A DNA stretch of 64,000 nt, taken from contig JAEXSP010000015.1 in NCBI GenBank assembly GCA_023453795.1, forward strand, positions 116,465 through 180,464, written 5' to 3'. Under the pieces are notes generated by a model. It made no database searches. It was not told where the DNA came from and saw only the letters and a program-made list of their open reading frames with translations. The position numbers were made by a program, and so were the translations under genes. This document shows, one piece after another, positions 23,365 through 45,943 of the stretch. This DNA comes from Bacillota bacterium. GTDB taxonomy: Bacteria > Bacillota > Clostridia > Acetivibrionales > JAEXSP01. Numbering within the stretch: the first letter of the stretch is position 1; each line of letters begins with the position of its first letter.

Positions 23365-24654
23365 CTATCTGATAAAGTACCGGACAGATCTCGCCATGCC
23401 GGATTTTTTGATCTTCCTTTCCTCAAGTAACTCGTTTATTAGCTTGAGCGCAAGTTGTTTGGTAATAGATAAACTTGACTCTATATCCTTACGAGACAGG
23501 TCTCCTTTATCAGTAATAAGCCTCAATATTTCCTGCTTCTGTTCCTCTTCTGAAAGAACGGCTATATGAGCTGTAAGTTTCGGAAGCGTAATAAGGAAGG
23601 AGGCTGGGGCAGGTTGTATTTTAGGTTTGCGCAATGTTTCCGAATAACTTTCGAAGATTTTTTTAATGCCGGTACCATAGCTTTCAATTAACTCCAAACG
23701 GTAAAAAACATCAGCGATAATGGGATTGCGCGGTTGAGACACGCCATTCATAATATCAATCACGGTTATCCCTTTAACAAGTCCCCCTATGGACACAAAC
23801 TCCATGCGATCCTCATACACGTTAATGATGATGCTTCCCGAATAATCATAGTCTCTATGAATGACAGCATTAAGCAAAGCCTCACGGATTGCCTCCGGAG
23901 GATAATCCGGATGATCAATCCTTTTAAGACCGTCAAAAGTGGAGTTTTGATTGTTGCTCAAGTTCACATATTCATAAGCCTCGTCCATTTGCTTAAGGAT
24001 AGAGCCGAAAAATTCTTTGCGGGCTTTAAACTTGGTTTTCCCTGTTCCTTCGTAGACGGCGCATTTGATGCTATGCTCACATTGGTCGGACAGAAGCAGC
24101 GCCGCATTGGTATAATATCCATCGGCGTCTATCAGCTTGAGCGTGCGGCGATTCTGCTGTGTAAAAGGAAGCCCCGCGTCCGCAAAATATTTTTCCGTAT
24201 AAGAAAAGGTCAAATCCTGATTCAGGCAGCGTGATTTATCAAAAGCCATGCCATCACTTTCACGCAGCATCTGACGGATTGCTTCATCCGTTGCAGGCAC
24301 GGATGACACCCCATGCCGGACAAAGACGCCGCTGGGTTTCAGTCCTTTATCCGAAAGATGGTAAGGCCGTTTCACCCCGCGCAGAACGGTAATGCGGATA
24401 ATCTTTGCACCGTCTTCGTCCATCGCTTCGATGGAGGTGTACGCCGTTAAATCGGGCTTAATCCCATCTCGAATCATATTACCGATTTGCGCCATCACTT
24501 CATCCGGATTCGATACGCCAACCGCTTGACCGTTATTATCAATGCCTATATAAATTGTTCCGCCATCGGTATTAGCCAAGGCGACAACTTCTTTTTTGAA
24601 ATCGGCATTTACTTCGCTTTTAAGCTCAACCGTTGCGCTCTCCTCATATTTCAT
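23365..24654 (-). CDS. putative DNA-binding/ATPase-like regulator (AlbA_2/Schlafen-type N-terminal domain + HATPase_c_4-like + C-terminal wHTH)
   Basis: 'ESATVELKSE...VVALANTDGGTIYIGIDNNG' is typical of AlbA_2 'divergent AAA' proteins. The C-terminus is 'EILRLITDKGDLSRKDI'. GGAGG lies upstream of the ATG at 24654. Confidence 0.65.
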   Translation of the reverse strand: MKYEESATVELKSEVNADFKKEVVALANTDGGTIYIGIDNNGQAVGVSNPDEVMAQIGNMIRDGIKPDLTAYTSIEAMDEDGAKIIRITVLRGVKRPYHLSDKGLKPSGVFVRHGVSSVPATDEAIRQMLRESDGMAFDKSRCLNQDLTFSYTEKYFADAGLPFTQQNRRTLKLIDADGYYTNAALLLSDQCEHSIKCAVYEGTGKTKFKARKEFFGSILKQMDEAYEYVNLSNNQNSTFDGLKRIDHPDYPPEAIREALLNAVIHRDYDYSGSIIINVYEDRMEFVSIGGLVKGITVIDIMNGVSQPRNPIIADVFYRLELIESYGTGIKKIFESYSETLRKPKIQPAPASFLITLPKLTAHIAVLSEEEQKQEILRLITDKGDLSRKDIESSLSITKQLALKLINELLEERKIKKSGMARSVRYFIR

Positions 24655-24667
24655 AACAAAAACCTCC

Positions 24668-24836
24668 AAAATCGTTATGTATCGTTACAATCGTAATTAT
24701 ATAACGATTCTATAACGATTACAAGATAAATCGCTAATTTATCAAGGTTTCTGGGCGATTTTCCATCGTCAAAAATCGACGATAGACAAGCAAAATCGTT
24801 TTAATCGTTATGAGAAAACGATATTTATGACGATTC
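24668..24836. repeat. array of at least 10 short ATCGT/ACGAT motifs (iteron- or operator-like)
   Basis: atcgttat, atcgttac, atcgtaat, taacgatt (x2), aatcgtttt, aatcgttat, aaacgata and gacgattc lie within about 170 bp, directly upstream of the 23365..24654 gene. Confidence 0.6.
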
Positions 24837-26390: not shown

Positions 26391-29039
26391 ATGAAAAAAC
26401 TTGTCATTGGAATATTGGCTCATGTAGATGCAGGCAAGACGACATTATCCGAGAGCATGCTTTATTTGAGCGGTAAAATTGGAAAATTAGGAAGAGTGGA
26501 CAATAAGGATGCCTACCTTGATACCTATGAGCTTGAAAGGGCAAGAGGAATCACCATTTTCTCCAAACAAGCCATATTGGATATAGGAGAGACTCAGGTC
26601 ACCTTACTGGATACCCCGGGACATGTTGATTTTTCAGCTGAAACTGAGAGAACACTTCAGGTGCTGGACTATGCCATTTTAGTGATAAGCGGTGCGGACG
26701 GCGTGCAGGGCCATACCGTAACATTGTGGCGTCTGCTTGACATGTACCGGATTCCTGTTTTTTTGTTCGTGAATAAGATGGATCAGAGCGGGACGGATAA
26801 GGACAAGTTATTAAAAGAAATTAAAAAGCAGCTGGGTGATGGCTGCATTGAATTCGGGCAGGTTCATACGGACAGCTTTTACGACCAATTGGCCATGTGT
26901 GATGAAACAATGCTGGAAGCTTATCTGGAAACAGGACATGTTGAAGCGGAGCACATTAAAAAGGCTGTCAGGGAGCGCAAAATATTTCCCTGCTTTTTCG
27001 GTTCAGCTTTAAAGCTGGAGGGCATAGAACAGTTTATGCAGGGTATTGCAGGCTATGCCGACGCACCCCGCTATCCCGATGAATTCGGGGCCAAAATCTT
27101 CAAGCTAACTCGGGACGAGCAAGGTAACCGTCTTACCCATATGAAGCTTACAGGCGGAAAATTGAAGGTGAAGGATGTCTTAACAAATGGCAGCTGGGAA
27201 GAGAAAGTTAATCAAATCCGTTTATATTCCGGGCAAAAATTTCAGGCAGTTAATGACATAGAGGCAGGTTCTGTATTTGCAGTAACAGGGCTCAGCCAAA
27301 CCAGGCCCGGGGAAGGCCTTGGAACGGAGAAAGCATCAAACGCACCTGTTTTGGAGCCTGTTCTCTCCTATCAGATCATACTTCCGGAAGGCTGCGATCC
27401 AAGGGCGATGCTTCCCAAACTCCGTCAAATTGAAGAAGAAGAACCGGAGCTTCATATTGCCTGGGATGAGCAGCTGCAGGAAATTCAGGCACAGATCATG
27501 GGGGATGTACAGATTGAAATTCTGCAGAGTATAATACAAAGCCGTTTTGGAACTAAGATAACCTTCGATGCCGGAAGGATTGTATATAAAGAGACAATCG
27601 CCAATATTGCAGAAGGGGTGGGACACTTTGAACCTCTTCGGCATTATGCAGAGGTTCACTTGTTGCTGGAGGCGGGTGAGCCGGGAAGCGGACTTCAGTT
27701 CGGAGTTGAATGCAGTGAGGATTTGTTGGGCAAAAGCTGGCAAAGGCTTATTTTAACGCATCTGGAGGAAAAAGCACATAAGGGTGTTCTGACTGGTTCA
27801 GCGATTACAGATATGAAAATCACTTTGGTCTCCGGCAAAGCTCACAATAAGCATACAGAAGGCGGCGACTTCAGAGAGGCTACTTACCGTGCGGTTCGTC
27901 AGGGCTTAAAGGAAGCGGAATCCATATTGTTGGAGCCTTATTATGCCTTTCAACTGGAATTGCCTGAGAAAATGGTCGGAAGAGCTATGACCGATATCGA
28001 GAAAATGCACGGCACTTGTAAAATATCACAGACCGATGGCGAAACGGCGGTTCTTGAGGGCTGTGCCCCTGTTATCACCATGAGGAATTATCAAAAAGAG
28101 GTAACTGCCTATACCAAAGGTCTCGGCAGACTTTTTTGTACATTAAAAGGGTATGAACCATGTCATAATGCGGAAGAGGTAATAGAAAGCATCGGGTATG
28201 ATTCCGAAAAAGACTTCGGAAATCCGACCGGTTCTGTATTCTGCACACATGGGGCAAGCTTTTTCGTGGGTTGGGATGAGGTAAAGGAGCATATGCATGT
28301 GGAAAGCTTTCTACAGGATAAAAACGGTTTTTCCGAGGAAATAATACCAAACCATGCCTCATACTCGGAGGAAAGGCATATCAGTATAGATGAAATTGAC
28401 CAAATTTTTAACAACACCTTTTATGCAAACCAGGGGAAGAAGACTATCTGGAAGAGAAGCAAAACAGTCCGCGACAGTTATTATGAACCGTCTGCCAACA
28501 TCAGCAGACAGAGGGAAATCTTAGAACAGTATCTCCTTGTGGATGGCTATAATGTGATTCACGCATGGCCTGAGTTAAGGGGGCTTACAGATGATAACAT
28601 GGACGCTGCCAGAATGAAATTGCTTGATTGTCTAAGTAATTATCAGGGTATCAAAAAATGTCAGATCATCGTTGTGTTCGATGCTTACCGTGTTGAAGGT
28701 CATCCGGAGGAAGTAATCGAATACCATAATATCCATGTGGTATATACCAGAGAAGCTCAAACCGCTGACGAGTATATAGAAAAATTCGCTCATGACAATC
28801 AAAAGAAATATCACATCACGGTTGCGACGTCAGACGGTTTACAACAGATTATTATAAGAGGCGCAGGATGCTCCCTGTTATCTGCCAGAGAATTGAAGGC
28901 TGAGGTTGACGGGGCCAATCAGAGATTAAGGCAGGAATATCAGGGAAAAATGGGTATCCACCGAAATCGTCTATCAGATGCATTGTCTCCGGAAGAAAAA
29001 CAGCGGATGGAGGAATCAACCGCAAGAGATGATGGATAA
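26391..29039 (+). CDS. EF-G/TetM-like translational GTPase fused to a C-terminal YacP/Rae1-type NYN ribonuclease domain
   Basis: G1 'AHVDAGKTT', G3 'DTPGH' and G4 'NKMD', with TetM-like domains up to about residue 650. Residues about 713-840, 'LLVDGYNVIHAWPEL...VVFDAY...TADEYIE...VATSDGLQQ', form a YacP-like NYN domain. Confidence 0.8.
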   Translation: MKKLVIGILAHVDAGKTTLSESMLYLSGKIGKLGRVDNKDAYLDTYELERARGITIFSKQAILDIGETQVTLLDTPGHVDFSAETERTLQVLDYAILVISGADGVQGHTVTLWRLLDMYRIPVFLFVNKMDQSGTDKDKLLKEIKKQLGDGCIEFGQVHTDSFYDQLAMCDETMLEAYLETGHVEAEHIKKAVRERKIFPCFFGSALKLEGIEQFMQGIAGYADAPRYPDEFGAKIFKLTRDEQGNRLTHMKLTGGKLKVKDVLTNGSWEEKVNQIRLYSGQKFQAVNDIEAGSVFAVTGLSQTRPGEGLGTEKASNAPVLEPVLSYQIILPEGCDPRAMLPKLRQIEEEEPELHIAWDEQLQEIQAQIMGDVQIEILQSIIQSRFGTKITFDAGRIVYKETIANIAEGVGHFEPLRHYAEVHLLLEAGEPGSGLQFGVECSEDLLGKSWQRLILTHLEEKAHKGVLTGSAITDMKITLVSGKAHNKHTEGGDFREATYRAVRQGLKEAESILLEPYYAFQLELPEKMVGRAMTDIEKMHGTCKISQTDGETAVLEGCAPVITMRNYQKEVTAYTKGLGRLFCTLKGYEPCHNAEEVIESIGYDSEKDFGNPTGSVFCTHGASFFVGWDEVKEHMHVESFLQDKNGFSEEIIPNHASYSEERHISIDEIDQIFNNTFYANQGKKTIWKRSKTVRDSYYEPSANISRQREILEQYLLVDGYNVIHAWPELRGLTDDNMDAARMKLLDCLSNYQGIKKCQIIVVFDAYRVEGHPEEVIEYHNIHVVYTREAQTADEYIEKFAHDNQKKYHITVATSDGLQQIIIRGAGCSLLSARELKAEVDGANQRLRQEYQGKMGIHRNRLSDALSPEEKQRMEESTARDDG

Positions 29040-30480: not shown

Positions 30481-31878
30481 ATGAGTTTTCCGGACAAAGA
30501 CGTCTTTTTTAACAAATATCCCAGTATAAGCGGCAAAGAACAAGAATTTGATGATTTGGGATATACCTGGTCTGATATGGAAGCTATATATTATGACTAT
30601 GTAGACAAAATTGCAGCATTAGAGGTCGCTGCAAACTCTCTTACTAAAATCTTGATGACTATGAAAAAGGTCCATTCTGTAAGAAAAAGAGTTAAGGACC
30701 CGGAACATCTGATTGAAAAAATCATAAGGAGAAGCTTGGACTTTAGGGGTCAATATGCCGATATATCCAACTACTGCGAAGTAATAAAAGATATGATCGG
30801 CATAAGAATTCTTCATTTATATAAGGAAGATTGGCTTGATATACATAACAATATTAAAGCAAATTGGGAGCAGGATGAAACACCTATTGCAAATATAAAA
30901 AAGGGCGATAAGGAAGATGTCTTTATTAAAAACGGCTGCAATGTCAAGGTTCATGAATTGGGTTACAGGTCAGTCCATTATTCAATAAAGTGCAATTCCT
31001 GTCAGGAGATTGGTGCAATTGCTGAAATCCAGGTCAGGACTCTTTTCGAGGAAGCATGGAGTGAAATGGATCACGAGGTCAGATATCCTTACTATCAAAA
31101 TGACCCGATATTGGGAAGCTTTTTGCAGACATTCAGCGGTATAGTCGGCAATGCCGATTCAATGGGTTCTTTTGTTATATTTTTAAAGAATCAGCTTTAT
31201 AAAAATACAGATTCTGAAGGCGGCACTTCCTTCAATCCGGCAGGCGGCAAGGTTGTCAGAGATTTTGTCAATGCTGCGGGAAACATTATTATTGATAATT
31301 CTGTTGAGACGGAAGATGAGGATAAACTTAGAAATATCTATAACAGCCTGAATTACGGGGGACATAATAACTATTATATACAGAATTTCGCTGTAACTGA
31401 ATTAAAAAACTTTCCGATAGAGAAATTTGTAGCAGCTTCTCCTGAATTGCAGGAAAATATAGGTAAAAGCATCGTTGAAATTGCACCCTCAAATAATAAT
31501 TCGGGAAGCTATCAGGCAAGAGACTTTTTAGATGAACTGAGGAAAACAGAAAAAAAGTATCCGGTTAATTTTGTTAAAGGAATTTTTACCTCTACACTAA
31601 AAAGATATAATTATGTATGGATTTGCAGCGAGTATTTTAATACTGCACTGCAGCTGACACTTAAGTTGAGCGAAATTGAAAGCTTAAATATTATTGATTC
31701 AGCAATAAAAGAGCTTAGCGAAGAGAAAATTGAAATATTCCACGGAGGGAAAAAATGTGAAGAAGTTATCAGTGTTATCAAAAGCCATCTGAATGATAGC
31801 GTAAGCAACTTATTAAAGTCTAAATTGAAGCAATTAGTCAATATCTTGAGTTCTTTAAAGGAAAAGGGAGTGTCTTGA
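30481..31878 (+). CDS. RelA/SpoT-domain (alarmone synthetase-fold) protein with about 230-aa uncharacterised C-terminal extension
   Basis: 'VRKRVKDPEHLIEKIIRR', 'DMIGIRILHLY', 'GYRSVHYSI' and 'EIQVRTLFEEAWSEMDHEVRYP' follow the synthetase-fold motif order. AAGGAGG lies upstream of the ATG. Confidence 0.75.
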   Translation: MSFPDKDVFFNKYPSISGKEQEFDDLGYTWSDMEAIYYDYVDKIAALEVAANSLTKILMTMKKVHSVRKRVKDPEHLIEKIIRRSLDFRGQYADISNYCEVIKDMIGIRILHLYKEDWLDIHNNIKANWEQDETPIANIKKGDKEDVFIKNGCNVKVHELGYRSVHYSIKCNSCQEIGAIAEIQVRTLFEEAWSEMDHEVRYPYYQNDPILGSFLQTFSGIVGNADSMGSFVIFLKNQLYKNTDSEGGTSFNPAGGKVVRDFVNAAGNIIIDNSVETEDEDKLRNIYNSLNYGGHNNYYIQNFAVTELKNFPIEKFVAASPELQENIGKSIVEIAPSNNNSGSYQARDFLDELRKTEKKYPVNFVKGIFTSTLKRYNYVWICSEYFNTALQLTLKLSEIESLNIIDSAIKELSEEKIEIFHGGKKCEEVISVIKSHLNDSVSNLLKSKLKQLVNILSSLKEKGVS

Positions 31879-33240: not shown

Positions 33241-34074
33241 TTAAGTCCACAGATCCAAATCAATCACCTTGTTTGAGCTTTTTTCTATAATCTGAATACA
33301 GTCCTCTTTATTATTTATTTCAATGCATGTCTGATAATATTTCGAAAACATAACATCCTCCAAAAGCTTATACGGTAAATTACCAGAGGCTTGAAAAAGC
33401 TCTCCCATAGGTGTATTCAGTTTTAGCAATTGTTTTATCTTAAGCAATCCGCTTTTCCCTGAATTGGGACTCTTAAAAATATAGATGTCAACTTTATCAG
33501 GGTATATCTTTTTGTTATAGTCCTCATTCATTAAAGCATCAATTGATTTCGTCCCAATGCAAAGTTCCTTAAATCCGACTGCAATTAATTTCGAGTCCTC
33601 ATAGCCCAAATTTCCCGAGTGTGAAGCAAGTATGGGATAATCATTATTTTTATGGCACTCTCTCATGTCGAACAATAAATGATTGCCGCAGCCATCCATA
33701 GCAAACGATACGGCAAGCTTCATGTACTCCGGCAGTTCATAAGCAATATTCATTTCTCTAAATTCATTTGTACTGAAAAATTGCAAATACCTGTCCCCAT
33801 TAGCAAATTCTCCGCCATTCGAATACTTTAGGAACTCTAAGTAGTCCGACGGCAATTCTCTTTTTGGAAAGCTCCAAAGCCTTGGATCAAAAGGCTTATA
33901 CAGATCATAATATTTATCACCTTTTCGAAACGGGTTCTTTTGCCTGGAGTTTATTTCATCAATTTCTTCACTAGATAAATCAACATTCCAGGTGTTTACA
34001 AACTCTTCTATTTCCGTCTGGGTTGCACCGGGCTTCTTGATATATTCTTTGTTATAAATACTCTTAAAATCCAT
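33241..34074 (-). CDS. SMI1/KNR4 (SUKH-1) family protein with extra C-terminal domain
   Basis: 'LPSDYLEFLKYSNGGEF' and the overall pattern are typical of the SUKH superfamily. Confidence 0.65.
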   Translation of the reverse strand: MDFKSIYNKEYIKKPGATQTEIEEFVNTWNVDLSSEEIDEINSRQKNPFRKGDKYYDLYKPFDPRLWSFPKRELPSDYLEFLKYSNGGEFANGDRYLQFFSTNEFREMNIAYELPEYMKLAVSFAMDGCGNHLLFDMRECHKNNDYPILASHSGNLGYEDSKLIAVGFKELCIGTKSIDALMNEDYNKKIYPDKVDIYIFKSPNSGKSGLLKIKQLLKLNTPMGELFQASGNLPYKLLEDVMFSKYYQTCIEINNKEDCIQIIEKSSNKVIDLDLWT

Positions 34075-34221: not shown

Positions 34222-35148
34222 TTATTGTTTATAAGGCAGCGTCGTTATAATTTTAAGCAAATACTGTTTTATAATAGCAAGGTCAAGAGAATCTACAGAA
34301 TTATCAAGATTCAGGTCCACAATCTTATTATATACATGCTTCGGATCCATTAAATACTGCTTGAGTCCTGCAAGATCCAAGGCATCCACAGCTTTGTCAT
34401 TGTTTATATCCCCATAAATTTCTGTTGGTGTATCGAAAAAGTAAATTCTCTGCATTTCAGCCCAAATTGCGTCTGCTGCTGCATAGCTCCCTGCTGTAGT
34501 GGGATGTATGCCGTCCGACAAAATGTACTGGGAGTATTTGCCGTCAAAGGTAGGTCTTAAATCAAAGAAATATCCTTTTGGCGAAGTTGAACCAGTTACA
34601 ATACTCTGAATTTGCGGTCTTAATGTATTCAGTTTTGGATTTAAGGTTCCAGATAAAGATCCCTGAGCATCAGGATAAAACAGATAGAAAACCTTGACCA
34701 GACCGTTCTTCTGCATTGTCTGAAATAAGGTTTTTGCTGCAGCTACGGCATTATCTACGCTTCCCATCAAGCAGTCATTTCCTCCGCCATCCATAATGAC
34801 ATACTTTACTGTACCAGCATTTACACCATTTTGGTATTGTTGAGGAATATTCGGTGAACTTCCACCGGAAAGCAAGGTTCCGCTTACTGAATTATCCCGG
34901 AAATGGTCATTCGCACCCAGAACCCCTGCGTTTATGGCATCTTGTTCCAACCTTTTTGTGATTTCATGGGACAACGCTAAAAATGAGTCCCCTATTACAA
35001 GGACTTCACTTCCTTTTATTTGGGTTGTACTGGCTGCTGTAGTTCCTGATGTCGCCGCTGTTGCTTGTCCGGGCAATAAAAAAAGCCCTGCAAAAGCACA
35101 CGTAATGACTGAGGCGGTAATTCGGAAAAGCACATTCTTGAATTTCAT
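34222..35148 (-). CDS. cellulosomal SGNH/GDSL-family esterase with C-terminal type I dockerin
   Basis: Signal peptide, 'VLVIGDSF' block I and 'GGNDC' block III. Duplicated dockerin segments 'GDINNDKAVDALDLAGLKQYL' and 'DLNLDNSVDSLDLAIIKQYL'. Confidence 0.85.
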   Translation of the reverse strand: MKFKNVLFRITASVITCAFAGLFLLPGQATAATSGTTAASTTQIKGSEVLVIGDSFLALSHEITKRLEQDAINAGVLGANDHFRDNSVSGTLLSGGSSPNIPQQYQNGVNAGTVKYVIMDGGGNDCLMGSVDNAVAAAKTLFQTMQKNGLVKVFYLFYPDAQGSLSGTLNPKLNTLRPQIQSIVTGSTSPKGYFFDLRPTFDGKYSQYILSDGIHPTTAGSYAAADAIWAEMQRIYFFDTPTEIYGDINNDKAVDALDLAGLKQYLMDPKHVYNKIVDLNLDNSVDSLDLAIIKQYLLKIITTLPYKQ

Positions 35149-35582
35149 AACATTCCCTCCCATTTCTCTCCATACAATATTAAACCTTAATGTTTCAAGC
35201 ATTGAAACATTCCAAACCCATTATATACCATTTTCTTCGGACAAGCAACCATAATTTATCTTTAATAATAAAATTCTCCACTTTTGCAGTATGCAGGTTT
35301 TCATGTAAAAAGAATCAAAACAATTAAGGTTTACCGACTGTAAAAGCTACGCAACTCACTGGAATAAAAGCCCTCACCCTCCATAATATATCTTATCAGG
35401 AACTTGACGGAAGCAATAATCTTGTATTATTATAGTAATTATTACTAACTTATGTAAATTTATAGGTTATTCAGAAAATATTTGTAATATTATAAAACAG
35501 GTTTAAAGAATAAAGCATTTCTCTAAGTACTGAGTATTAAAAATTCCATAATAAAATACATTAACTTGCAAAGGATTAACGT

Positions 35583-37610
35583 ATGAAAGTACTTCTCTGC
35601 AACATGCCATGGGGAAAAATTGATTTTCCGTCAATACAACTGGGTATTCTGAAAGCTTATCTGACGCAGCACGGAATAAGTGCCGATGTATCATATCAGA
35701 ATGTAAGATTCGCTGCCTTGATCGGTACGGAAACATACTCGAAGCTTTCAATCAGTTCCCGTTATTCCTTTCTTTTAGAATGGCTGTTTAACGAATTTAT
35801 TGTTAAAGACAAGTCAGTACTTAAGGAAATGCAGAAAAATCAGGAAAATGATATCAGGGAGCTTATTGAGCTAAAGGATACAAACCCTTTTTTGACGGAC
35901 GCCTATAATCCGATGCCTATCGGAAGTGCAAAAGCAGTAGATGAAAAGCAGATTGAAAATGAATTAATCAGGGTCTGCAGGAATATAAAAAATGAAACCA
36001 TCCCCACCTACTTTTATAAGCTGTTAAATGAAACCAACTTTTCCGAATACGACATAATAGGTTTTACCTGTTCTTTCAGTCAGACAGCCCCTTCAATCAG
36101 CTTCGCCAGAATCATAAAGGACAGGTTCAGAGATAAGGTGATAATACTAGGAGGCAATGGTGTAAGCGGTCATATGGGAATTGAGTACATGAAGGCTTTC
36201 CCATGGATTGATTACATTGTATACGGTGAGGGAGAAACTGCGCTTTCGGAACTGGTTCAATATCTCAGGGAAAATCATTACAGCTTAAAGCCCGGGCACA
36301 AGCTTACAGGGATTATCTACCGGGAGGAAGACGGAAATATCATAATGTCACCGCCGTCACCATCCCTTGAAATGGACAAAGTTCCCGTACCCGATTATGA
36401 TGATTATTTCAGTCAGATAAAAATAATTGAAAAAGCAGCAGGAATAAGCCTCAAGCAGGACACTTTACTGTTTGAAACAGCTAGGGGCTGTTGGTGGGGA
36501 GAAAAAAAGCAATGCAAATTCTGCAGCCTCAACGGTGAAAACCGGCATTTCCGGAGCAAAACCTGGGAAACGGTACTTGAGAATGTTCTTCAGCTATCGG
36601 AACGGTATGAAAAAAATGAACTTATTTGTGTCGACAATATATTGAGTTATCCCGCATTGGTTAATTTATTTTCAGCATTGCAGGAAAGGAATCTGAATCT
36701 TGATATATTCTGGGAAGTAAAGCCGAATCTATCAATGAAGCAGCTGAAAATATTGTCCGAAGCCGGGCTGAAAAAAGTTCAGGCAGGAATAGAAAGCTTT
36801 AGCACTGAAGTGATAAGACTTATCGAAAAAGGCTCGACCAGGTTGAAAAACGTGCAGTTTGTTAGAAACTGCTTCTCACTGGGAATTCATGTATCCTATA
36901 ATTTCCTCTTCGGTTTTCCCGGAGAAAAGCCGGAATACTACAATGACCTTGCAGAACTGTTTCCGCTTCTTCACCACATTACCCCTCCCCTCTATCCGCC
37001 AAGGCCTATGATTCTTCAAAGATTCAGCAGGTATTATGCAGAACCCGAAGAGAATCAATTAAAAAATATAAGACCTATGAAGCAGTACAATATCATTTAT
37101 CCGGTTAAAGAGCTGGATATAGAAAAAATATCCGCCACTTACTCTTTTGAATGCACTTCTGTACCTCAAAACCTTGACTATATGATCAGAATTACCGAAG
37201 CTATCGGAGATTGGAATATAGCTTTTGGGGGTAAAAACACTCCGATTCTTGCATATGAAACCGGAGTTAATTTTGTCAGGCTTTACGATTCAAGGTTTGA
37301 AAGGTTCAGGAGTATGATTCTAAGGGGCATTCCGGCAATGATTTACCTGCTTTGCGAAGAAATAAGACCACTTGACAGGGTTATTAGCGTCATAAGGGAA
37401 AAACATGCCGAAAAAGACCTGAAGGATGAGGAGATAACAAACCTTCTCAATGTCCTTGTCTCAGAAAAGCTCATGATTATGGAGGATGGAATGTATTTGT
37501 CGCTGGCGGTCAACCTCCGTCACATTTCGGACAGATTGCCTGAATACAGCCGAAGCAGGATAATCAATGCAAGATTGTTCAATGAATTTGATGAATTATT
37601 CAAAAAATAA
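35583..37610 (+). CDS. B12-binding-domain radical SAM enzyme (class B, RiPP-maturase type; probable C-methyltransferase)
   Basis: N-terminal Rossmann-like 'KVLLCNMPWGKIDFPSIQLGILKAYL...IIGFTCSF'. Cluster motif 'CWWGEKKQCKFC' (CX7CX2C). 675 aa. First gene of a tightly packed three-gene operon. Confidence 0.8.
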   Translation: MKVLLCNMPWGKIDFPSIQLGILKAYLTQHGISADVSYQNVRFAALIGTETYSKLSISSRYSFLLEWLFNEFIVKDKSVLKEMQKNQENDIRELIELKDTNPFLTDAYNPMPIGSAKAVDEKQIENELIRVCRNIKNETIPTYFYKLLNETNFSEYDIIGFTCSFSQTAPSISFARIIKDRFRDKVIILGGNGVSGHMGIEYMKAFPWIDYIVYGEGETALSELVQYLRENHYSLKPGHKLTGIIYREEDGNIIMSPPSPSLEMDKVPVPDYDDYFSQIKIIEKAAGISLKQDTLLFETARGCWWGEKKQCKFCSLNGENRHFRSKTWETVLENVLQLSERYEKNELICVDNILSYPALVNLFSALQERNLNLDIFWEVKPNLSMKQLKILSEAGLKKVQAGIESFSTEVIRLIEKGSTRLKNVQFVRNCFSLGIHVSYNFLFGFPGEKPEYYNDLAELFPLLHHITPPLYPPRPMILQRFSRYYAEPEENQLKNIRPMKQYNIIYPVKELDIEKISATYSFECTSVPQNLDYMIRITEAIGDWNIAFGGKNTPILAYETGVNFVRLYDSRFERFRSMILRGIPAMIYLLCEEIRPLDRVISVIREKHAEKDLKDEEITNLLNVLVSEKLMIMEDGMYLSLAVNLRHISDRLPEYSRSRIINARLFNEFDELFKK

Positions 37611-37631
37611 ACAATTTGGGGGAAGAAGAAA

Positions 37632-39023
37632 ATGTATAAAAACTACAAGACATCCGCATTTAATACAGTCGTAAGAATAGATGAAGACAATTCAATAATT
37701 TATAACAGCTTTTCACAAGGGCTTTCACTTCTGGATGTCAATGAAATGGGCATATACAAGAAATTTGACAAGCAGGAAGACGGAAATATTGACGCAGAAG
37801 AAAGGGACGTTATCGATCAACTGCTGATAAACAACTTTCTGGTTCCCTCCGACATTAACGAATTGGAGAAATTCACCGCGTACTACCGGCAGGAAAGGCA
37901 GAAAACGGACAACATGGGTATTACCGTGCTGCCTACCTTGAACTGCAACTTCGGGTGCAACTACTGCTTTGAAGGAAATGAAAAATCAAATACACTTATG
38001 CCTGAAAAAATCCAGCAGTCCATTATGAACCTTATCCAAAGGAAATCAGACACAATCAAAAGCCTGAATATAACCTGGTTTGGCGGAGAACCCCTAATGG
38101 GCCTGAACGTCATAAAGAAGCTGTCCAACAACATCATCCCGTTTTGCGATTCAAAGGGAATATCTTACTACGCATCGATTATCACAAACGGTTACATGCT
38201 TACCGAAGAAGTAATGGGAGAATTGTATATACGTAAGGTACGCACTGTTCAAATCACTCTTGACGGTGCCGAACAGGAGCACAACAGTACAAGATCCTTG
38301 AAAGCTACCGGCCAAGGCACATACGGCAGGATCCTGGACAACATTAAAGCTTACATAGATAAATACCCCATTAATACTATAATAAGAATCAATGTGGATA
38401 AGAAAAACGTGGACTCAATATTCGGACTTCTTGATGATCTTGAAAAAAGAGGTCTTAGCAATACAAGGCGTCTGTCGGTTTATTTCTCACCTATAGAGGC
38501 CTCTACGCGCGCCTGTGGGAAGGCAGTCGATGAGGTCATAAAAATGGAGAATTTCGCAAAACACGAATTTGAATTATATAAATACGCCATAGCAAAGGGA
38601 TTAAGTTACAATTCCCTCCCCTACCGCATGGTGGGTATCTGCACTTCCTGCCGCCCCAACGGCCTTGTAATCCTGCCCAACGGTGATCTTCACCGGTGCT
38701 GGGAAACAGTTTCCGACGAAAGCAAGAAAATAGGACTTCTTGAAAACGGCGACAACCTGACTAAAAATTCATTGGAAGCAAAATGGTCAGACTGGAGTCC
38801 CCTTAACTATGAAGAATGCCGGAATTGCCCCATATTACCCAATTGTGCAGGCTACTGCTCTTACAGGTTCATTTACGGTTCCGAATTCAAAAGTGCCTTC
38901 AAAACACCATGTCCGGCACTTAAATATAACATCAAAGACAAGCTGCTGTACTACATAGCTTCAAAAGATCCGGATATCGCTAAACTACTGCTTGTAAAAG
39001 GAATGGAGGGAGGTGTAAGTTAA
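37632..39023 (+). CDS. radical SAM/SPASM-domain peptide maturase
   Basis: Canonical 'CNFGCNYC'. Complete SPASM Cys pattern 'CTSCRPNGLVILPNGDLHRC...CRNCPILPNCAGYC...C'. Starts 21 nt after the previous gene. Confidence 0.85.
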   Translation: MYKNYKTSAFNTVVRIDEDNSIIYNSFSQGLSLLDVNEMGIYKKFDKQEDGNIDAEERDVIDQLLINNFLVPSDINELEKFTAYYRQERQKTDNMGITVLPTLNCNFGCNYCFEGNEKSNTLMPEKIQQSIMNLIQRKSDTIKSLNITWFGGEPLMGLNVIKKLSNNIIPFCDSKGISYYASIITNGYMLTEEVMGELYIRKVRTVQITLDGAEQEHNSTRSLKATGQGTYGRILDNIKAYIDKYPINTIIRINVDKKNVDSIFGLLDDLEKRGLSNTRRLSVYFSPIEASTRACGKAVDEVIKMENFAKHEFELYKYAIAKGLSYNSLPYRMVGICTSCRPNGLVILPNGDLHRCWETVSDESKKIGLLENGDNLTKNSLEAKWSDWSPLNYEECRNCPILPNCAGYCSYRFIYGSEFKSAFKTPCPALKYNIKDKLLYYIASKDPDIAKLLLVKGMEGGVS

Positions 39024-39067
39024 AGGTATTTTAATCATTAACAATAAATTTTAAGGAGGACTGAAAT

Positions 39068-39676
39068 ATGAAAAACTTTGTTAACATCGGTTTTAACGGT
39101 TATCCTGAGAGCAACGTAGATTCTGTTGTAAGAGGGTTTACAACGAATAAGGAACTCGTAGTGTTCAGCGTATCGCCTGACGAAGGCACAACAGCTTCAC
39201 TGCACGGGACAAAACTTGAATTGCCCAATGAGTTAGTCAAAATTAACGACTTAAAAACCCTGATCAATTACCTAAAAGGTGTATCAATGTCTGTGGAAAA
39301 TAATGTACTTAAAACACAAACTCTGCCGAGCAATGCGGCAATGTATATGAAAACAGCTCCTCTTGCCGACCAGGATTGTACAGCATACGGCGGATGCCCT
39401 GCAGATGGTGGTTGTGCAGCAGATGGCTGTGCAGCACACGGTGGCTGCGCGGCTCGTGCCGGGTGTGCAGCGGATGGCTGCGGAGGATATGGCGGCTGCG
39501 CTGCAGACGGAGGCTGTGCAGCACGTGGATGTGCAGCGGACGGAGGCTGTGGAGCAAATGTACCTTGTGCAGCTGATGGCTGCGTTGGACATGCATGCGG
39601 AGTTGATGCCTGCCCGGCAAATGTCAACATCGGGCCGTGTGCAATTGATATTCCTATATGCCCGATAATTCTGTAA
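39068..39676 (+). CDS. Cys/Gly/Ala-repeat precursor-like peptide (putative RiPP substrate)
   Basis: AAGGAGGA lies upstream of the ATG. Residues 1-103 contain no Cys. Residues 104-202 contain 17 Cys in reiterated G-C-[AP]-A-[DHR]-G(G) units. Confidence 0.75.
   Translation: MKNFVNIGFNGYPESNVDSVVRGFTTNKELVVFSVSPDEGTTASLHGTKLELPNELVKINDLKTLINYLKGVSMSVENNVLKTQTLPSNAAMYMKTAPLADQDCTAYGGCPADGGCAADGCAAHGGCAARAGCAADGCGGYGGCAADGGCAARGCAADGGCGANVPCAADGCVGHACGVDACPANVNIGPCAIDIPICPIIL
39377..39600 (+). repeat. imperfect 15-18 nt coding tandem repeats (TGYGCAGCNGAYGG(N)GGN), locally GC-rich
   Basis: tgtgcagcagatggc, tgtgcagcacacggtggc, tgtgcagcggatggc, tgcgctgcagacggaggc, tgtgcagcacgtgga, tgtgcagcggacggaggc and similar units. 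Confidence 0.8.
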
Positions 39677-39682
39677 TAAAAA

Positions 39683-39735
39683 CCTTGATAAAATATGCTC
39701 CTCTTTCAGATATAGAGGAGCATATTTTATCAAGG
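39683..39735. terminator. perfect 22-bp inverted repeat between convergent genes
   Basis: ccttgataaaatatgctcctct (39683-39704) pairs with agaggagcatattttatcaagg (39714-39735) across a 9-nt loop. The minus strand follows with ttttt. Confidence 0.7.
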
Positions 39736-39764
39736 AAGCTGTAATAAGACTCCATTTATCTCAA

Positions 39765-41558
39765 TCATTCCTTTGGAAGCAATATATCAACCCTTGTGCC
39801 CTTACCGGGAGAGCTCTCAACCTTAATGCCGTATTCTTCACCGTAAAACACCTTAATCCTCTGATAGACATTTACTAGGCCTATATGGCTTTCAGCCTTA
39901 TTGTCAATCTCCTTCAGTGATTCGACAAGCCTGTCCAGCTCATCTTCCTTCATTCCCGAACCATTGTCTGCAACCGAAATACGAAGAAAATCCCCCGTTT
40001 CAATAACCGACACGGAAACAAGACCGGGTACTGATGAGTTCTCAAGTCCATGGACAAGAGCGTTTTCTACGATAGGTTGTATAAGCAGCGGAAGTATTTT
40101 CCTCTTTTCAAGGTTATATGGGCATTCCACGGTATAAGCTATCCTGTCGCCAAACCTGAATCTCTGAATTTCAAGGTATGCCCGTACTGTGTTTATTTCA
40201 TCAATCAGGTAAATCTGTTCATTGCCGAGCTTAAGGTTCTGCCTGATTATTCTCCCAAGCAGCATTACGATTTCGGCTATCTCGGTATTACCTGTACACA
40301 GCGCCTTCATTCTGACGGATTCCAGGGTATTAAACAGGAAATGAGGATTTATCTTGCTTATAAGCATTTTTAATTCCATTTCCTTTTGGTTGATTACCAG
40401 CTGTTTATTTTGAAGATTGACTCTTAGATTGTCCCTTGACAAATCATTCAGGTTTTTAACCATTCGGTTTAAATTTGAGGAGAGGGAGCCGATTTCGTCA
40501 TTCCCGCTTATTTTCGATATGTGATCCAGCTTTCCGGATGCAACTGTCTGCATGTCCATAGTCAGCTTCTTGATCCTTCTGCTTATAATATGTGAGAAAA
40601 GTATAATAATCACAACCGAAAGAAAAAGGCTAGAAAATGTGATAAGCAGCGAAGTATTCCTGATCTTTCGGGCCGATGAGGTAATATATTTGAGAGGGTA
40701 AATGCAGATTACCGAGAATTTCTCATCGTATTGGGTTGATGAAAGCACATTGAAGGTAATTTTACAAACCCGGTTTTTAAAAGTAACCTTTTCCGAATAC
40801 TGCGAGCCTTTATGGAATTTTGCATTTCCTAACACCTGTTCAAGCTTCCTGCCTTCAAAGCTTTTATTTTTTGCGGAAATGATATTTGCGGAATCGTCGC
40901 AAAGCAGTATGTCAAACTTCTCCTGTTCAAGAAATGCTGAAAGGTTATCCATGTTTACGTCAATTACCAGAACACCAAGAGGCTGCCCCATCTGGCTTTT
41001 AACAAATCTTATCAGGCATAATTGCTTACGGTTCCTTTGTTTGATAACTACCTCGTTCGTAATGTAACGCCATAGTATACGTCCCTTTTTATTTAAAGCG
41101 GATTTGAACCATTCCAGTTTCTCAATATCCTGAGTAACCGGAATAAACTCCCAATTATTCAGCAGAGACTTATTAAAGGAATAAAGTCTTATATAGGAAA
41201 TTTCACTATATAACCTTCTGAAGTCGGAAAACTCGCTGTATTTATTATAATCCCTTATTATATCCGCAGTTTTTGTGTATTGGGTGTTTAGAATCTTCTG
41301 AAGGTTTTCTTCGTAATACAGCTTGTTTGATATGTCAATCGGTATTTTAAGCGTATATTCAAGCCTCTTGCACACTCTCTCCGAGCTTTCTTCAATCTCA
41401 GCCGATGTACGTGAAGCCTCAACGGCATAGAGTTTCCCGGATAAAATCAACCCGATTGCAAGCACAGGCAGAAATACAACGAACAGGTAGAAAACCAGAA
41501 GTTTGCCTCTCATGCTTATGCTATTGAATTTAAATAGAAAACTTTTAAACATAATCAT
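39765..41558 (-). CDS. sensor histidine kinase (YesM-like) with no adjacent response regulator
   Basis: Two TM segments, HAMP, 'KINPHFLFNTLESV' H-box, and 'ADNGSGM' and 'HIGLVNV' ATPase motifs. Confidence 0.85.
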   Translation of the reverse strand: MIMFKSFLFKFNSISMRGKLLVFYLFVVFLPVLAIGLILSGKLYAVEASRTSAEIEESSERVCKRLEYTLKIPIDISNKLYYEENLQKILNTQYTKTADIIRDYNKYSEFSDFRRLYSEISYIRLYSFNKSLLNNWEFIPVTQDIEKLEWFKSALNKKGRILWRYITNEVVIKQRNRKQLCLIRFVKSQMGQPLGVLVIDVNMDNLSAFLEQEKFDILLCDDSANIISAKNKSFEGRKLEQVLGNAKFHKGSQYSEKVTFKNRVCKITFNVLSSTQYDEKFSVICIYPLKYITSSARKIRNTSLLITFSSLFLSVVIIILFSHIISRRIKKLTMDMQTVASGKLDHISKISGNDEIGSLSSNLNRMVKNLNDLSRDNLRVNLQNKQLVINQKEMELKMLISKINPHFLFNTLESVRMKALCTGNTEIAEIVMLLGRIIRQNLKLGNEQIYLIDEINTVRAYLEIQRFRFGDRIAYTVECPYNLEKRKILPLLIQPIVENALVHGLENSSVPGLVSVSVIETGDFLRISVADNGSGMKEDELDRLVESLKEIDNKAESHIGLVNVYQRIKVFYGEEYGIKVESSPGKGTRVDILLPKE

Positions 41559-43624: not shown

Positions 43625-45943
43625 TTATTTTGGCCGTGTCAGCAGATATATTTTCAGTGCGGCGAAATCCAAGGCATCTACAAAACCATCTGAATTATAG
43701 TCCGCAGCTTTCAAGGCATCTCCCGTGAGAAGCTGTGCTTTGACAAGATGCATTTTAAGGCAGGCGAAATCCAATGCGTCTACCACTTTATCATTATTTA
43801 CATCACCCAATATAATTTTGGTCGGTGTAGTTCCATCAGGTTCAATACCGCCTACAAGAACACCGGAATCATAAACACAGATATGATCCGTTTTCACCGG
43901 AGTCCCCTTCCAGCTGTCCTCAACAATACTAAGTCCCTGATGACTCCAGTCATCTGTTGGATCCCAGTAATTCTGCCAAGCATAGGTGCCGAGAGCAAAC
44001 TGGTATTTTTTGTTGGAATCGGCTATTGCGTAGCCAGGCCAGGTTACTTCGACATAGTAAATATTATCAGAATTTTTGTACTTTTGAATACCTGAAAGTG
44101 AAGCCTTATAGTTTGTTTCTACCGCCGCCTGGTCATACAGCTGCCTTAGTTCCATTTTGTTCGGGTCAAGAGATGTCATTCCTGTAGCATCAAAAAAGTA
44201 TCTGACGGAAATGTTCTTTGATGGTACGGTAACAGAATCAGAACGCACATACAAAGTAACTTCCGTAGCTTTCGGCCCATCGGACTGCTTAATATCCACA
44301 CCGAAGCCTTCCACCCAATAGGTAGGAGTGCCTGTTGGATCCTGGCTTGGTGGTGGAGGGAAATTCGGAGTAATTTGCATTGAAGCATCACCGAAATAAC
44401 GGTAAAGGCCGGCACATGCTCCGACGAATGCAGCATTATAATCTATTGCAACCTCATTATAAACATAATCCGCTGTGGTATCGTTGTGCTGGTCTTTTGA
44501 GTCAGGACCGCCTACCAATGCACCGTAAAGTACATATTTCTGAGGTTTTGTTTCTTCACATCTCGATAAGCCCGATGCTGCTCTATGATGCGGATATTTT
44601 ACCGATATGTCACTGTACCCGACGATATAACAACGGTTTAACGGATTATTGCCCATCAGATAATTCATTTGCGATTTTGCCCACTCACCGTATTTTGATG
44701 CTTTATCCCCATGGTGTTTGTCATAAACAAGGGCTAAAAGCTGAGTTGCTGTATTATACCTGGCTGAACCCCATTGGCTGAGGAATGAATAACCTGCAGG
44801 TGTTAAAGTCGGAGTTCTGCCTGTCATCCAATTATCTACGGTTTTGGCTATCTGGCTCCAGAAGTCAATTTCCTCGTAAGGACTCTTGCCTGTAGCTTCT
44901 CTATACCTGTTTTCATATACTTGTCCGTCTTTATCGTTCATATCGTTTATTTCTGCCAAAACACACATTGTACCTGCCCACACATCATTCCAGCAGTGAG
45001 TCCAGCATGAAGGCGCATAATAATCCAGATTCTTGAATACCACATCCAGGTAATGATCGTCTGCTGTTGCCAGATAAAGCCATGCTGCAGCCCAGCAGTA
45101 GTCATCCTGCCATTTTAAGGATGTGTAATAACCCCCGGGGCCATCTGCGTTGCATGATTTAGTAGGGCACCTTTCGGCAAACTCAAATAAGGCTTTTGCA
45201 TATTTAAGGCATTTCGCCGCATAGTTCGGATCCTCAGCCTTAAAATTCATATAGTTTACTGCCAGAGAAGCTGCTGCTGCGGATACACAGTCGGTAGAGG
45301 GCAGTGCATCAGTTGCAAACCACCCTCTTCTGAACATATCATCCATTTCAGGTGCCTGCCAGGTCCGATGGTCAACATCACCATCCCCTACCTGATAGCA
45401 GAATGCGATCGCCTTGCCTGACTTATCCAGGAAGGTACACCTCATAAAATAGTCGTTGAAATACCTTAAAATTGTCTTGGTATGCTTGTCCTGCTGCGTA
45501 GCTTCATATTGTTCTCTGAATTCATAGAACCCCCACCCTACAGTGGAGCCTGCATAGGCCTCAGGCATACCGAATTTTACATGATCACCGGCATCGTGAA
45601 AGCCGCCCGAAACATCTACTGTTCCGTCTCCGTCCGGATCAAGTGTACTCTTGTTGGCTTCGATAAAGCTTGCGGACATATTAGTATTTTTGTCATCAAG
45701 AGGAAGCTTCGCATCATAAGTATGGCAATTGTGCCTCCACTGGTACAAGGTATTTCCGTCAACACCGGTGCCGCACATGTTCGCATCGTAAAAATACTGG
45801 GAATACTGCAATGCTTTTGCATAATTATATTCCAGATCCGCAGCGTTAACGGTCAACGTGCCGGCAGAGCCAAGCGTACTGAAAGTCAAAATACCTGTCA
45901 TCAAAGTTCCGATTATCTTCGAAAAAACTTTTCTCTTTTTCAT
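43625..45943 (-). CDS. cellulosomal family 9 endoglucanase (GH9-CBM3c-dockerin)
   Basis: Signal peptide. GH9 motifs 'GGFHDAGDHVKFG', 'HHRAASG' and 'DYVYNEVAIDYNAAF'. CBM3c-like module. Dockerin repeats 'GDVNNDKVVDALDFACLKMHL' and 'DYNSDGFVDALDFAALKIYL'. Confidence 0.9.
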   Translation of the reverse strand: MKKRKVFSKIIGTLMTGILTFSTLGSAGTLTVNAADLEYNYAKALQYSQYFYDANMCGTGVDGNTLYQWRHNCHTYDAKLPLDDKNTNMSASFIEANKSTLDPDGDGTVDVSGGFHDAGDHVKFGMPEAYAGSTVGWGFYEFREQYEATQQDKHTKTILRYFNDYFMRCTFLDKSGKAIAFCYQVGDGDVDHRTWQAPEMDDMFRRGWFATDALPSTDCVSAAAASLAVNYMNFKAEDPNYAAKCLKYAKALFEFAERCPTKSCNADGPGGYYTSLKWQDDYCWAAAWLYLATADDHYLDVVFKNLDYYAPSCWTHCWNDVWAGTMCVLAEINDMNDKDGQVYENRYREATGKSPYEEIDFWSQIAKTVDNWMTGRTPTLTPAGYSFLSQWGSARYNTATQLLALVYDKHHGDKASKYGEWAKSQMNYLMGNNPLNRCYIVGYSDISVKYPHHRAASGLSRCEETKPQKYVLYGALVGGPDSKDQHNDTTADYVYNEVAIDYNAAFVGACAGLYRYFGDASMQITPNFPPPPSQDPTGTPTYWVEGFGVDIKQSDGPKATEVTLYVRSDSVTVPSKNISVRYFFDATGMTSLDPNKMELRQLYDQAAVETNYKASLSGIQKYKNSDNIYYVEVTWPGYAIADSNKKYQFALGTYAWQNYWDPTDDWSHQGLSIVEDSWKGTPVKTDHICVYDSGVLVGGIEPDGTTPTKIILGDVNNDKVVDALDFACLKMHLVKAQLLTGDALKAADYNSDGFVDALDFAALKIYLLTRPK

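Follow-up and report, generated by a model that had tools for sequence, protein, structure and literature searches.

The stretch analyzed here, 64,000 nucleotides (nt) of contig JAEXSP010000015.1 from a Bacillota bacterium (referred to below as the window), contains a compact cassette of three genes on the same strand, that has a strong ribosome-binding site and ends in a hairpin. The first two genes encode a B12-binding radical S-adenosylmethionine (SAM) enzyme and a radical-SAM/SPASM peptide maturase, and the third encodes a 202-amino-acid (aa) protein that ends in a cysteine-rich tail (Table 1). Judged from sequence comparison, the best explanation of this protein is that it serves as the dedicated substrate of the two upstream radical-SAM enzymes. 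The original prediction for this DNA had read the tail as a multisite substrate of a SPASM radical-SAM enzyme, on the model of freyrasin and its maturase PapB; the substrate role now appears very probable, while the version specific to freyrasin and PapB is not supported by the comparisons described below.

Table 1. Features of the three-gene cassette and of the encoded Cys-rich protein, with positions in the window
Feature	Positions	Strand	Basis and remarks
B12-binding radical-SAM enzyme, 675 aa, first gene of the operon	35583..37610	+	TIGR03975, Pfam
Radical-SAM/SPASM peptide maturase, 463 aa, second gene of the operon	37632..39023	+	TIGR04463
Shine-Dalgarno sequence AAGGAGG	39053..39059	+	Seen in the sequence itself, 8 nt ahead of the ATG at 39068
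Putative substrate gene, 202 aa plus stop, third gene of the operon	39068..39676	+	Open reading frame list, translation, nine homologs of the same architecture, dN/dS
N-terminal domain, residues 1 to 95, orphan family	39068..39352	+	AlphaFold2; no Pfam, NCBIfam, or PDB match
Cys-rich tail, residues 104 to 202	39377..39673	+	17 units C-x-x-[D/H/R/Y/N]-x with linkers of 0 to 4 residues
Four 51-nt copies that have diverged, each encoding a super-repeat of 17 residues and 3 Cys	39377..39580	+	Tandem Repeats Finder
C-terminal cap GPCAIDIPICPIIL	39632..39673	+	Near-invariant in 9 of 9 homologs
Perfect 22-bp hairpin	39683..39735		Between the convergent substrate and histidine-kinase genes

Translation of the third gene places Cys at residues 104, 110, 116, 121, 127, 133, 138, 144, 150, 155, 161, 167, 172, 177, 182, 191, and 198, with none in residues 1 to 103, exactly as had been listed from the first reading of the DNA; the start given for the tail, position 39377, is the first Cys codon and lies in frame. 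The eight C-x-x-D motifs named at that time (CPAD, five copies of CAAD, CGVD, and CAID) are all present. It had also been stated that 15 of the 17 Cys are followed by x-x-[D/H/R/Y/N]; this was a miscount, as 16 of them are, and the sole exception is C198 (CPII). The protein ends in NIGPCAIDIPICPIIL. Spacing between successive Cys is strict, running 6, 6, 5 four times over and then 5, 5, 9, 7. Across 31 long open reading frames (ORFs) of the window, Cys makes up 1.45% of residues and no other 99-residue stretch holds more than 8; the binomial probability of finding at least 17 Cys among 99 residues is 1e-13.

At the DNA level, the tail had been described as an imperfect tandem repeat of 15 to 18 nt. 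The repeat is real, but its dominant period is 51 nt: the best array returned by Tandem Repeats Finder has 4.0 copies at this period (66% matches; score, 163), with an 18-nt period giving a weaker description (score, 49), and a Cys spacing of 6, 6, 5 (17 aa) likewise makes 51 nt the best period. Since the four copies share only 31 to 38 of their 51 positions with one another, the repeat is old and diverged rather than a product of recent slippage. The core is far richer in GC than its surroundings, as noted earlier (63.5%, versus 40% in the N-terminal half of the gene and 39% in the window), and this is accounted for by its content of Ala, Gly, and Cys codons. Five other ORFs of 66 to 149 aa cross the repeat region, two on the plus strand (39363..39668 and 39376..39576) and three on the minus strand (39268..39630, 39284..39733, and 39309..39620). 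These are by-products of stop-poor, GC-rich DNA and could mislead gene callers.

Nine homologs of the 202-aa protein, with identities of 30 to 97%, all combine the N-terminal domain with a Cys-rich tail and share the near-invariant C-terminal end GPCAVDIPxCPIIL. Against a 76%-identical homolog (locus L087; loci fetched for comparison are designated by L numbers), the ratio of nonsynonymous to synonymous substitution rates (dN/dS) amounts to 0.21 for the core and 0.16 for the N-terminal half. In comparisons with Heliomicrobium gestii and one more distant genome, synonymous sites are saturated (proportion of synonymous differences [pS], 0.77 to 0.91), and the corresponding nonsynonymous proportion (pN) is only 0.12 in the core, below the 0.23 to 0.44 of the N-terminal half. 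Purifying selection (dN/dS, ∼0.2), together with the exactly kept Cys spacing in all relatives, shows that the ORF at 39068..39676 is truly coding. In the relatives, the repeat is kept without frameshifts or stops. Comparison of repeat number between homologs, suggested in the original prediction, revealed changes in whole steps of 17 residues and 3 Cys, with 16 to 21 Cys in the clade; such whole-period differences in copy number support the earlier proposal that the array expanded by internal duplication. The Cys register of the window's clade, (6,6,5)n followed by 5,5,9,7, is exact in all members, and that of a sister clade (Methanococcus voltae type) is (7,5,5)n followed by 9,6. Both registers give a period of 17 residues and 3 Cys. 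A tail from Thiothrix was observed to alternate between spacings of 7 and 5, a period of 12 residues and 2 Cys. Periodic Cys registers of this kind may reflect a structural or processing register.

The product of the first gene matches TIGR03975, “RiPP maturation radical SAM C-methyltransferase” (RiPP, ribosomally synthesized and posttranslationally modified peptide), in NCBIfam with 520.3 bits (cutoff, 281.85) and carries the Pfam Radical_SAM and B12-binding domains; its nearest solved structure is that of the cobalamin-dependent methyltransferase TokK (7KDX; E = 6.8e-7). For the maturase, the top NCBIfam match is TIGR04463, “rSAM_vs_C_rich” (509.5 bits; E = 6.6e-153; model positions 1 to 429 of 438), followed by the Clo7bot maturase (271 bits), CefB (244), FlmE/OhkG (242), and the geopeptide maturase (157), with lower scores for PapB (111), the SCIFF maturase (94), QhpD (76.8), and the anaerobic sulfatase maturase (72.7). 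The CX3CX2C motif of the maturase consists of C105, C109, and C112, and its SPASM seven-Cys motif is made up of C337-x13-G-x4-C356, C396-x2-C399-x5-C405-x3-C409, and C427. These radical-SAM and SPASM (two auxiliary clusters) Cys are invariant in 22 maturase relatives and align with those of the thioether synthase CteB, which also provides the nearest solved structure (5WGG; E = 1.8e-14).

The three-gene cassette is kept, in otherwise differing surroundings, in L001 (Heliomicrobium gestii), L002, L086, and L087, where homologs of the B12 enzyme stand beside the maturase; the locus of the most distant homolog, L003, has the maturase and substrate only. Only the three cassette genes are conserved between loci. 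In L087, the B12 radical-SAM gene (1594-3622) was called in two pieces (89 and 593 aa), which may reflect a frameshift, a pseudogene, or an assembly error.

To delimit the wider family, species-representative genomes were scanned with an alignment of the maturase, and ORFs were analyzed in the fetched loci. The window's own species and its Heliomicrobium relatives were retrieved by exact-protein lookups rather than by the genome scan, in which the closest relative among the matches listed was 38% identical. Proteins that NCBI names as TIGR04463 are 43 to 45% identical to the window's maturase. Relatives of the maturase adjoin tail-bearing proteins in at least eight phyla. Among the fetched loci in which the maturase scores at least 291 bits against that of the window, a tail is missing only from L014, L015, and L017 to L019. 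A tail is present in the window, L001 to L013, L016, L020, L021, L086, and L087. L014, L015, L018, and L019 (Rhodobacteraceae and relatives) have a TIGR04463-like maturase, no Cys-rich tail that passes the filters, and a C39-peptidase-type ABC transporter together with a second shared gene family; in these loci, the substrate may be of another format and be exported.

According to the genome scan and ORF analysis, tails also occur in Myxococcota, Cyanobacteria, Actinomycetota, Alphaproteobacteria, and Desulfobacterota. What precedes the tail differs among lineages: in Clostridia and methanogens, the cargo is a small orphan domain, and in myxobacteria, cyanobacteria, and actinobacteria, it is a lectin, tectonin, or crystallin protein of 500 to 1000 aa. 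In Methanococcus voltae, the neighbor of the TIGR04463-named maturase has 298 aa, an N-terminal domain as in the window, 35 Cys, and the end GPCIHIPYCPLVL. At loci with maturases of this name in two other genera, an 872-aa protein of Thiothrix has Laminin-G and Ricin-B domains ahead of its Cys-rich tail (end, GPCAVDFPYCPFVL), and in Haliangium, the tail closes a 657-aa Ricin-B/crystallin protein (end, CAIDIIPIIPFI). The very C-terminus is formed by a cap, C-A-[IV]-[DN]-[IV]-(I)P-x-x-P-x-x, in at least 16 loci plus the window, representing at least eight phyla. TIGR03975-like B12 enzymes, 27 to 30% identical to that of the window, recur in myxobacterial, cyanobacterial, and actinobacterial loci; homologs in this identity range are found in L006 to L011 and in L017. 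An all-against-all comparison of the loci revealed no further widely shared gene.

Further variation was observed among the tail-bearing proteins. Those of 650 to 1000 aa in L006 (7649-9622), L008 (2864-5860), L009 (7344-9497), L010 (7551-9626), and L011 (7380-10229) join Ricin-B, tectonin-like, beta/gamma-crystallin, and fascin-like repeats to a Cys-rich tail. No signal peptide is evident in them by eye, and they share the N-terminus M-K-Y-I-V-x-P-V...S-A-N-A/M-P-G, which could be a recognition element. Methanococcus voltae has a second paralog (L004, 5026-5865) that keeps the N-terminal domain and has a different core with 13 Cys, built on a repeated SC(V/G)IQVG...EEMTPKVEEILQR block and ending in SMPYCPIVH; this paralog may be a second substrate type of the Methanococcus voltae maturase.

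The N-terminal domain was modeled with AlphaFold2 from a 10-sequence alignment of the 202-aa protein. Residues ∼18 to 88 are predicted to form three strands, two helices, and two strands, with a predicted local distance difference test (pLDDT) score of 77 to 89 over residues 21 to 90. A Foldseek search of the PDB with this model gave nothing better than E = 0.5, and comparison of a domain profile with PDB sequences, as well as Pfam scans of 15 N-terminal domains, returned noise only. The complete protein matches no Pfam or NCBIfam family at E ≤ 0.01, and its sole family match at E ≤ 10 is CefA (8.8 bits). Relatives of the domain number 10 among 1.8 billion representative proteins, some of them stand-alone (86 to 106 aa) and some duplicated. 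A hidden Markov model (HMM) of the domain gave matches solely in loci with tails ending in GPC..P.CP..L. Proteins P0133, P0136, P0131, and P0132 carry the domain either alone (86 to 106 aa) or in tandem duplication, and in Thiothrix it forms a separate 106-aa ORF (L005, 2993-3313) adjoining the large tail-bearing lectin protein. Its existence as a separate small protein in Thiothrix suggests that the domain can act in trans, as a partner rather than a leader. The homolog alignment contains no double-glycine or other conserved junction motif. In light of the predicted fold, the orphan status, and the stand-alone and duplicated forms, the domain does not resemble a typical leader peptide; possible roles are those of recognition partner, chaperone, or cargo. 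The features of a classical leader-core RiPP (a short unstructured leader, a recognizable cleavage site, and a clustered protease or exporter) are absent from the locus, where neither the cassette genes nor the flanking genes encode a protease or an exporter; genes elsewhere in the genome might nevertheless process the protein.

To define the repeat unit, residue frequencies were compiled for 16 tails with 391 Cys. Position +1 after the Cys is G or A, +2 is A, and +4 is A or G; at +3, D (154 occurrences) is followed by A (62), N (59), Q (38), K (20), and E (18). In the 209 units with a Cys-to-Cys spacing of 6 to 12, the pattern at +1 to +4 is kept, with D or N at 57% of the +3 positions, and variation is seen at positions −2 to −4 ahead of the following Cys. 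The unit can therefore be written C-x-x-X-x; it is anchored on the preceding Cys and runs into a linker of variable length, so that the register proposed earlier from the window alone, a Cys followed by x-x-acceptor, holds as a real unit across the family. This pattern supports the view that each Cys would have a downstream partner. Linkage of Cys to an upstream Asp (DxxC, as in NxxC peptides) was considered and is less likely, given that the register is anchored on the preceding and not the following Cys. Asp itself is not a conserved acceptor, as it occupies only 8 of the 17 +3 positions in the window's tail and the +3 residues are mixed over the 391 Cys. Within the window's clade, however, each column keeps its own +3 residue (D, Y/H, R, D, Y, D, R, D, N, D, H, D, N, D), which argues that its identity matters even though it is not uniform. 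Cys is the sole residue invariant in every unit across phyla.

Among catalogued systems, the closest is TIGR04463, whose loci resemble the window in having a neighbor protein with a Cys-rich tail and a terminal cap and, in several cases, a TIGR03975-like B12 gene. The window's clade differs from these loci in its own orphan N-terminal domain, its (6,6,5)n register, and its GPCAVDIPxCPIIL end. No NCBIfam or Pfam model covers the substrate protein. On sequence grounds, the locus is thus placed as a divergent member of the TIGR04463 system that forms a distinct subclade, a kind of system that is catalogued without experimental characterization. The short name “rSAM_vs_C_rich” suggests that the curators of TIGR04463 had already noticed a Cys-rich partner. 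The CefA/CefB pair (NF038108/NF038107) is similar in its regular pentapeptide Cys spacing and related SPASM maturase, and one tail from a TIGR04463 locus, that of Haliangium, scores above the CefA threshold (44.8 bits; cutoff, 30). The window, in contrast, scores 8.8 bits for CefA (E = 1.5; cutoff, 30) and 244.1 bits for CefB (cutoff, 600), with a spacing of 6,6,5 rather than 5. CefA/CefB also appears to lack experimental characterization.

Comparison can also be made with two further systems. The SCIFF/CteB (thermocellin) system shares all of the radical-SAM and auxiliary-cluster Cys and has a Cys-rich substrate from Clostridia; SCIFF peptides carry a single Cys-Thr link (PMC10177961). The window's maturase scores 94.4 bits for the SCIFF model TIGR03974 (cutoff, 425), and its partner has 202 aa and 17 Cys, compared with ∼45 aa and six Cys in SCIFF. 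In QhpC/QhpD, a SPASM enzyme introduces several Cys-Asp/Glu thioethers into a polypeptide that is retained in a protein, the gamma subunit of quinohemoprotein amine dehydrogenase. The window's score for QhpD is 76.8 bits (cutoff, 453); a dehydrogenase context is lacking at the locus, and QhpC/QhpD lacks the repeat architecture.

The explanation that we favor, and consider probable though well short of assured, is a general thioether ladder, in which the tail is a multisite substrate for iterative Cys thioether cross-linking accompanied by C-methylation. Thioether chemistry is the most probable because the nearest characterized relatives of the maturase (PapB, the SCIFF maturase/CteB, and QhpD) all join a Cys sulfur to carbon. 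The SPASM enzyme would work along the unfolded tail and, in each C-[GA]-A-X-[AG] unit, abstract hydrogen from a nearby residue downstream of the Cys, most probably X at +3. The Cys sulfur would then be joined to the acceptor carbon, with a loss of 2 Da per link and up to 17 small thioether rings. Each link could be either to a side-chain carbon (ranthionine; Asp, Asn, Gln, or Glu) or to the alpha-carbon (sactionine; any residue); D, N, Q, and E at +3 fit the known side-chain links, and A, K, H, Y, and R fit alpha-carbon links better. The B12 enzyme would subsequently add one or more C-methyl groups. Recognition may occur through the universal C-terminal cap, since this is the only element common to all substrates and the N-terminal parts are unrelated between phyla. 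The product may remain a cross-linked protein rather than become a cleaved, secreted peptide, as no protease or exporter accompanies the cassette and the N-terminal domain is predicted to fold.

Several observations weigh against the thioether-ladder explanation. The maturase falls 15 bits below the curated TIGR04463 cutoff (509.5 versus 525) and seems to represent a divergent clade on the margin of that family; because of such subthreshold scores, NCBI calls the Heliobacterium orthologs just “SPASM domain-containing protein.” The variety of residues at +3 (D, N, A, Q, K, E, H, Y, and R) would demand an unusually broad acceptor tolerance or a different acceptor. Characterized thioether synthases are distant from the maturase (111 bits; E = 1.8e-14), and AlphaFold2 gave no confident fold for the tail (pLDDT, ∼30). 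SPASM enzymes also form C-C and C-O links and formylglycine. They make cyclopropanes as well, as in the cyclopropylglycine formed on a repeat substrate (PMC9062424). The literature searched contained no published reaction for TIGR04463, Clo7bot, CefB, or FlmE/OhkG: Clo7bot, TIGR04463, TIGR04334, NF038107, and “Cys-every-fifth” are not mentioned in it, and broader queries retrieved only general papers on ranthipeptides, sactipeptides, and cyclopropylglycine. FlmE/OhkG is named only as uncharacterized genes of clusters studied for their arginases (PMC12703449).

A narrower alternative is a freyrasin-type ranthipeptide, in which a PapB-like enzyme would close eight rings, each from a Cys to the beta-carbon of the Asp at +3, and leave the other nine Cys free or in disulfides. 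PapB joins Cys to the C-beta of Asp, installing Cys-Asp thioethers at CX3D motifs (PMC10177961), and the freyrasin system resembles the window in its reiterated Cys-Xn-Asp substrate, its SPASM enzyme, and the several thioethers envisaged in one peptide. The eight CxxD motifs of the tail fit this alternative, as do the predominance of D or N at +3 across the family (213 of 391), the near fixation of D/N in the terminal unit C-A-[IV]-[DN], and the position of PapB as the nearest characterized family by HMM score. That score, however, is 111.2 bits against a cutoff of 340 for the PapB model NF047865, so the maturase is not a member of the PapB family; the tail contains eight CX2D motifs and not one CX3D, and its acceptor position is not consistently Asp. 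The analogy drawn in the original prediction is not supported on these points. Moreover, all 17 Cys are equally conserved, including those before H, Y, R, and N, and most units of the sister clades have Q, A, or K at +3, which makes exclusive use of the Asp units unlikely. The window also differs from freyrasin in having 17 Cys versus 6, in that half of its units lack Asp, and in its ∼100-aa N-terminal domain with a predicted fold, its B12 radical-SAM partner, and its lack of a protease or exporter in the cassette. Overall, we regard the freyrasin-type alternative as unlikely.

Less probable again is SPASM chemistry other than thioether formation, such as Cys oxidation of the formylglycine type, C-C or C-O cross-links at Tyr, His, or Arg, or epimerization, with the Cys serving another role. 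The chemical diversity of SPASM enzymes (e.g., cyclopropylglycine formation on a repeat substrate [PMC9062424]), the lack of any published characterization of the family in the literature searched, and the weak HMM similarity to the anaerobic sulfatase maturase (72.7 bits) would all accommodate such chemistry, but Cys alone is invariant in every unit and every phylum, most sister-clade tails lack Tyr, His, and Arg, and the top-scoring characterized relatives are thioether synthases. Sulfatase-type Cys oxidation in particular was set aside: the motif C-x-[PA]-x-R is absent, with Arg falling at +3 and not at +4.

We consider it very unlikely that the tail is a thiol-rich metal- or Fe-S-binding segment (a metallothionein or scaffold) with free thiolates, on which radical-SAM changes would be minor (for example, methylation) or would fall elsewhere. 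A density of 17 Cys in 99 residues with small Ala/Gly neighbors, and the proximity of the Methanococcus voltae locus to genes for a NifX-like protein and an Fer4-containing ATPase, would suit metal binding. Such a role leaves unexplained the strict linkage of tails to SPASM maturases across phyla, no metallothionein, metal-binding, or pentapeptide-repeat family in Pfam or NCBIfam matches the protein, and the +1 to +4 register and terminal cap are typical of an enzyme substrate rather than a simple chelator. Finally, a noncoding GC-rich tandem repeat with a spurious ORF open by chance in several frames has a negligible probability and was ruled out: ORFs in other frames and on the other strand do traverse the repeat, but the dN/dS of ∼0.2, the protein pattern retained against distant homologs despite saturated synonymous sites, the identical Cys spacing in nine homologs at 30 to 97% identity, the copy number register, the Shine-Dalgarno site, and the conserved gene position all contradict it.

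The hairpin downstream of the substrate gene has a predicted RNA folding energy of −34.9 kcal/mol (z = −11.1 versus shuffled sequences). A simple terminator scan missed it for want of a T-run behind it; it is likely a bidirectional terminator. Rfam gave zero matches in positions 35000 to 40000 of the window. The cassette is flanked by genes for a GDSL esterase with a type I dockerin (34222-35202, −), a Cache/HAMP histidine kinase, a solute-binding protein, and a GH9-CBM3-dockerin cellulase (43625-45943, −), and the dockerin-bearing genes identify the source as a cellulosome-producing, Clostridium-like bacterium. Dockerin-bearing GDSL and GH9-CBM3 genes likewise flank the cassette in L087. Farther upstream lie genes for a Schlafen/AlbA_2 protein with a RecG-C-like HATPase domain (23365-24669, −), an 882-aa protein in which an EF-G/TetM-like GTPase (GTP_EFTU and EF-G domains II, IV, and C) is joined to a YacP-like NYN nuclease domain at the C-terminus (26391-29039, +), a RelA/SpoT-domain protein with a long C-terminal extension (30481-31878, +), and a SUKH-1 (SMI1/KNR4) protein (33241-34074, −). 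The Schlafen/AlbA_2, RelA/SpoT, and SUKH-1 genes may represent a defense or toxin-immunity neighborhood.

If the thioether-ladder explanation is correct, a single enzyme would build as many as 17 successive thioether rings into a tail of 99 residues, far exceeding any characterized sacti- or ranthipeptide, and cobalamin-dependent methylation would be added to them. The maturase lineage extends from methanogens to cyanobacteria without a published reaction in the literature searched. As a minimal, tractable system with cultured relatives in Heliomicrobium gestii and Methanococcus voltae, the three-gene operon offers a practical start for assigning the TIGR04463 reaction and probably also those of the sister families Clo7bot, CefB, and FlmE/OhkG. 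More speculatively, the TIGR04463 system might be no peptide-antibiotic pathway at all but a protein cross-linker, guided by a cap rather than a leader, that staples a Cys repeat into a rigid, thioether-laddered rod or anchor, a proposal that we hold to be doubtful at present; the 17-residue, 3-Cys and (in Thiothrix) 12-residue, 2-Cys periods could reflect a solenoid-like geometry. The presence of the tail at the end of large lectin-like proteins, with the cap at the extreme C-terminus, raises the idea that radical-SAM enzymes, guided by a C-terminal signal, may staple whole proteins.

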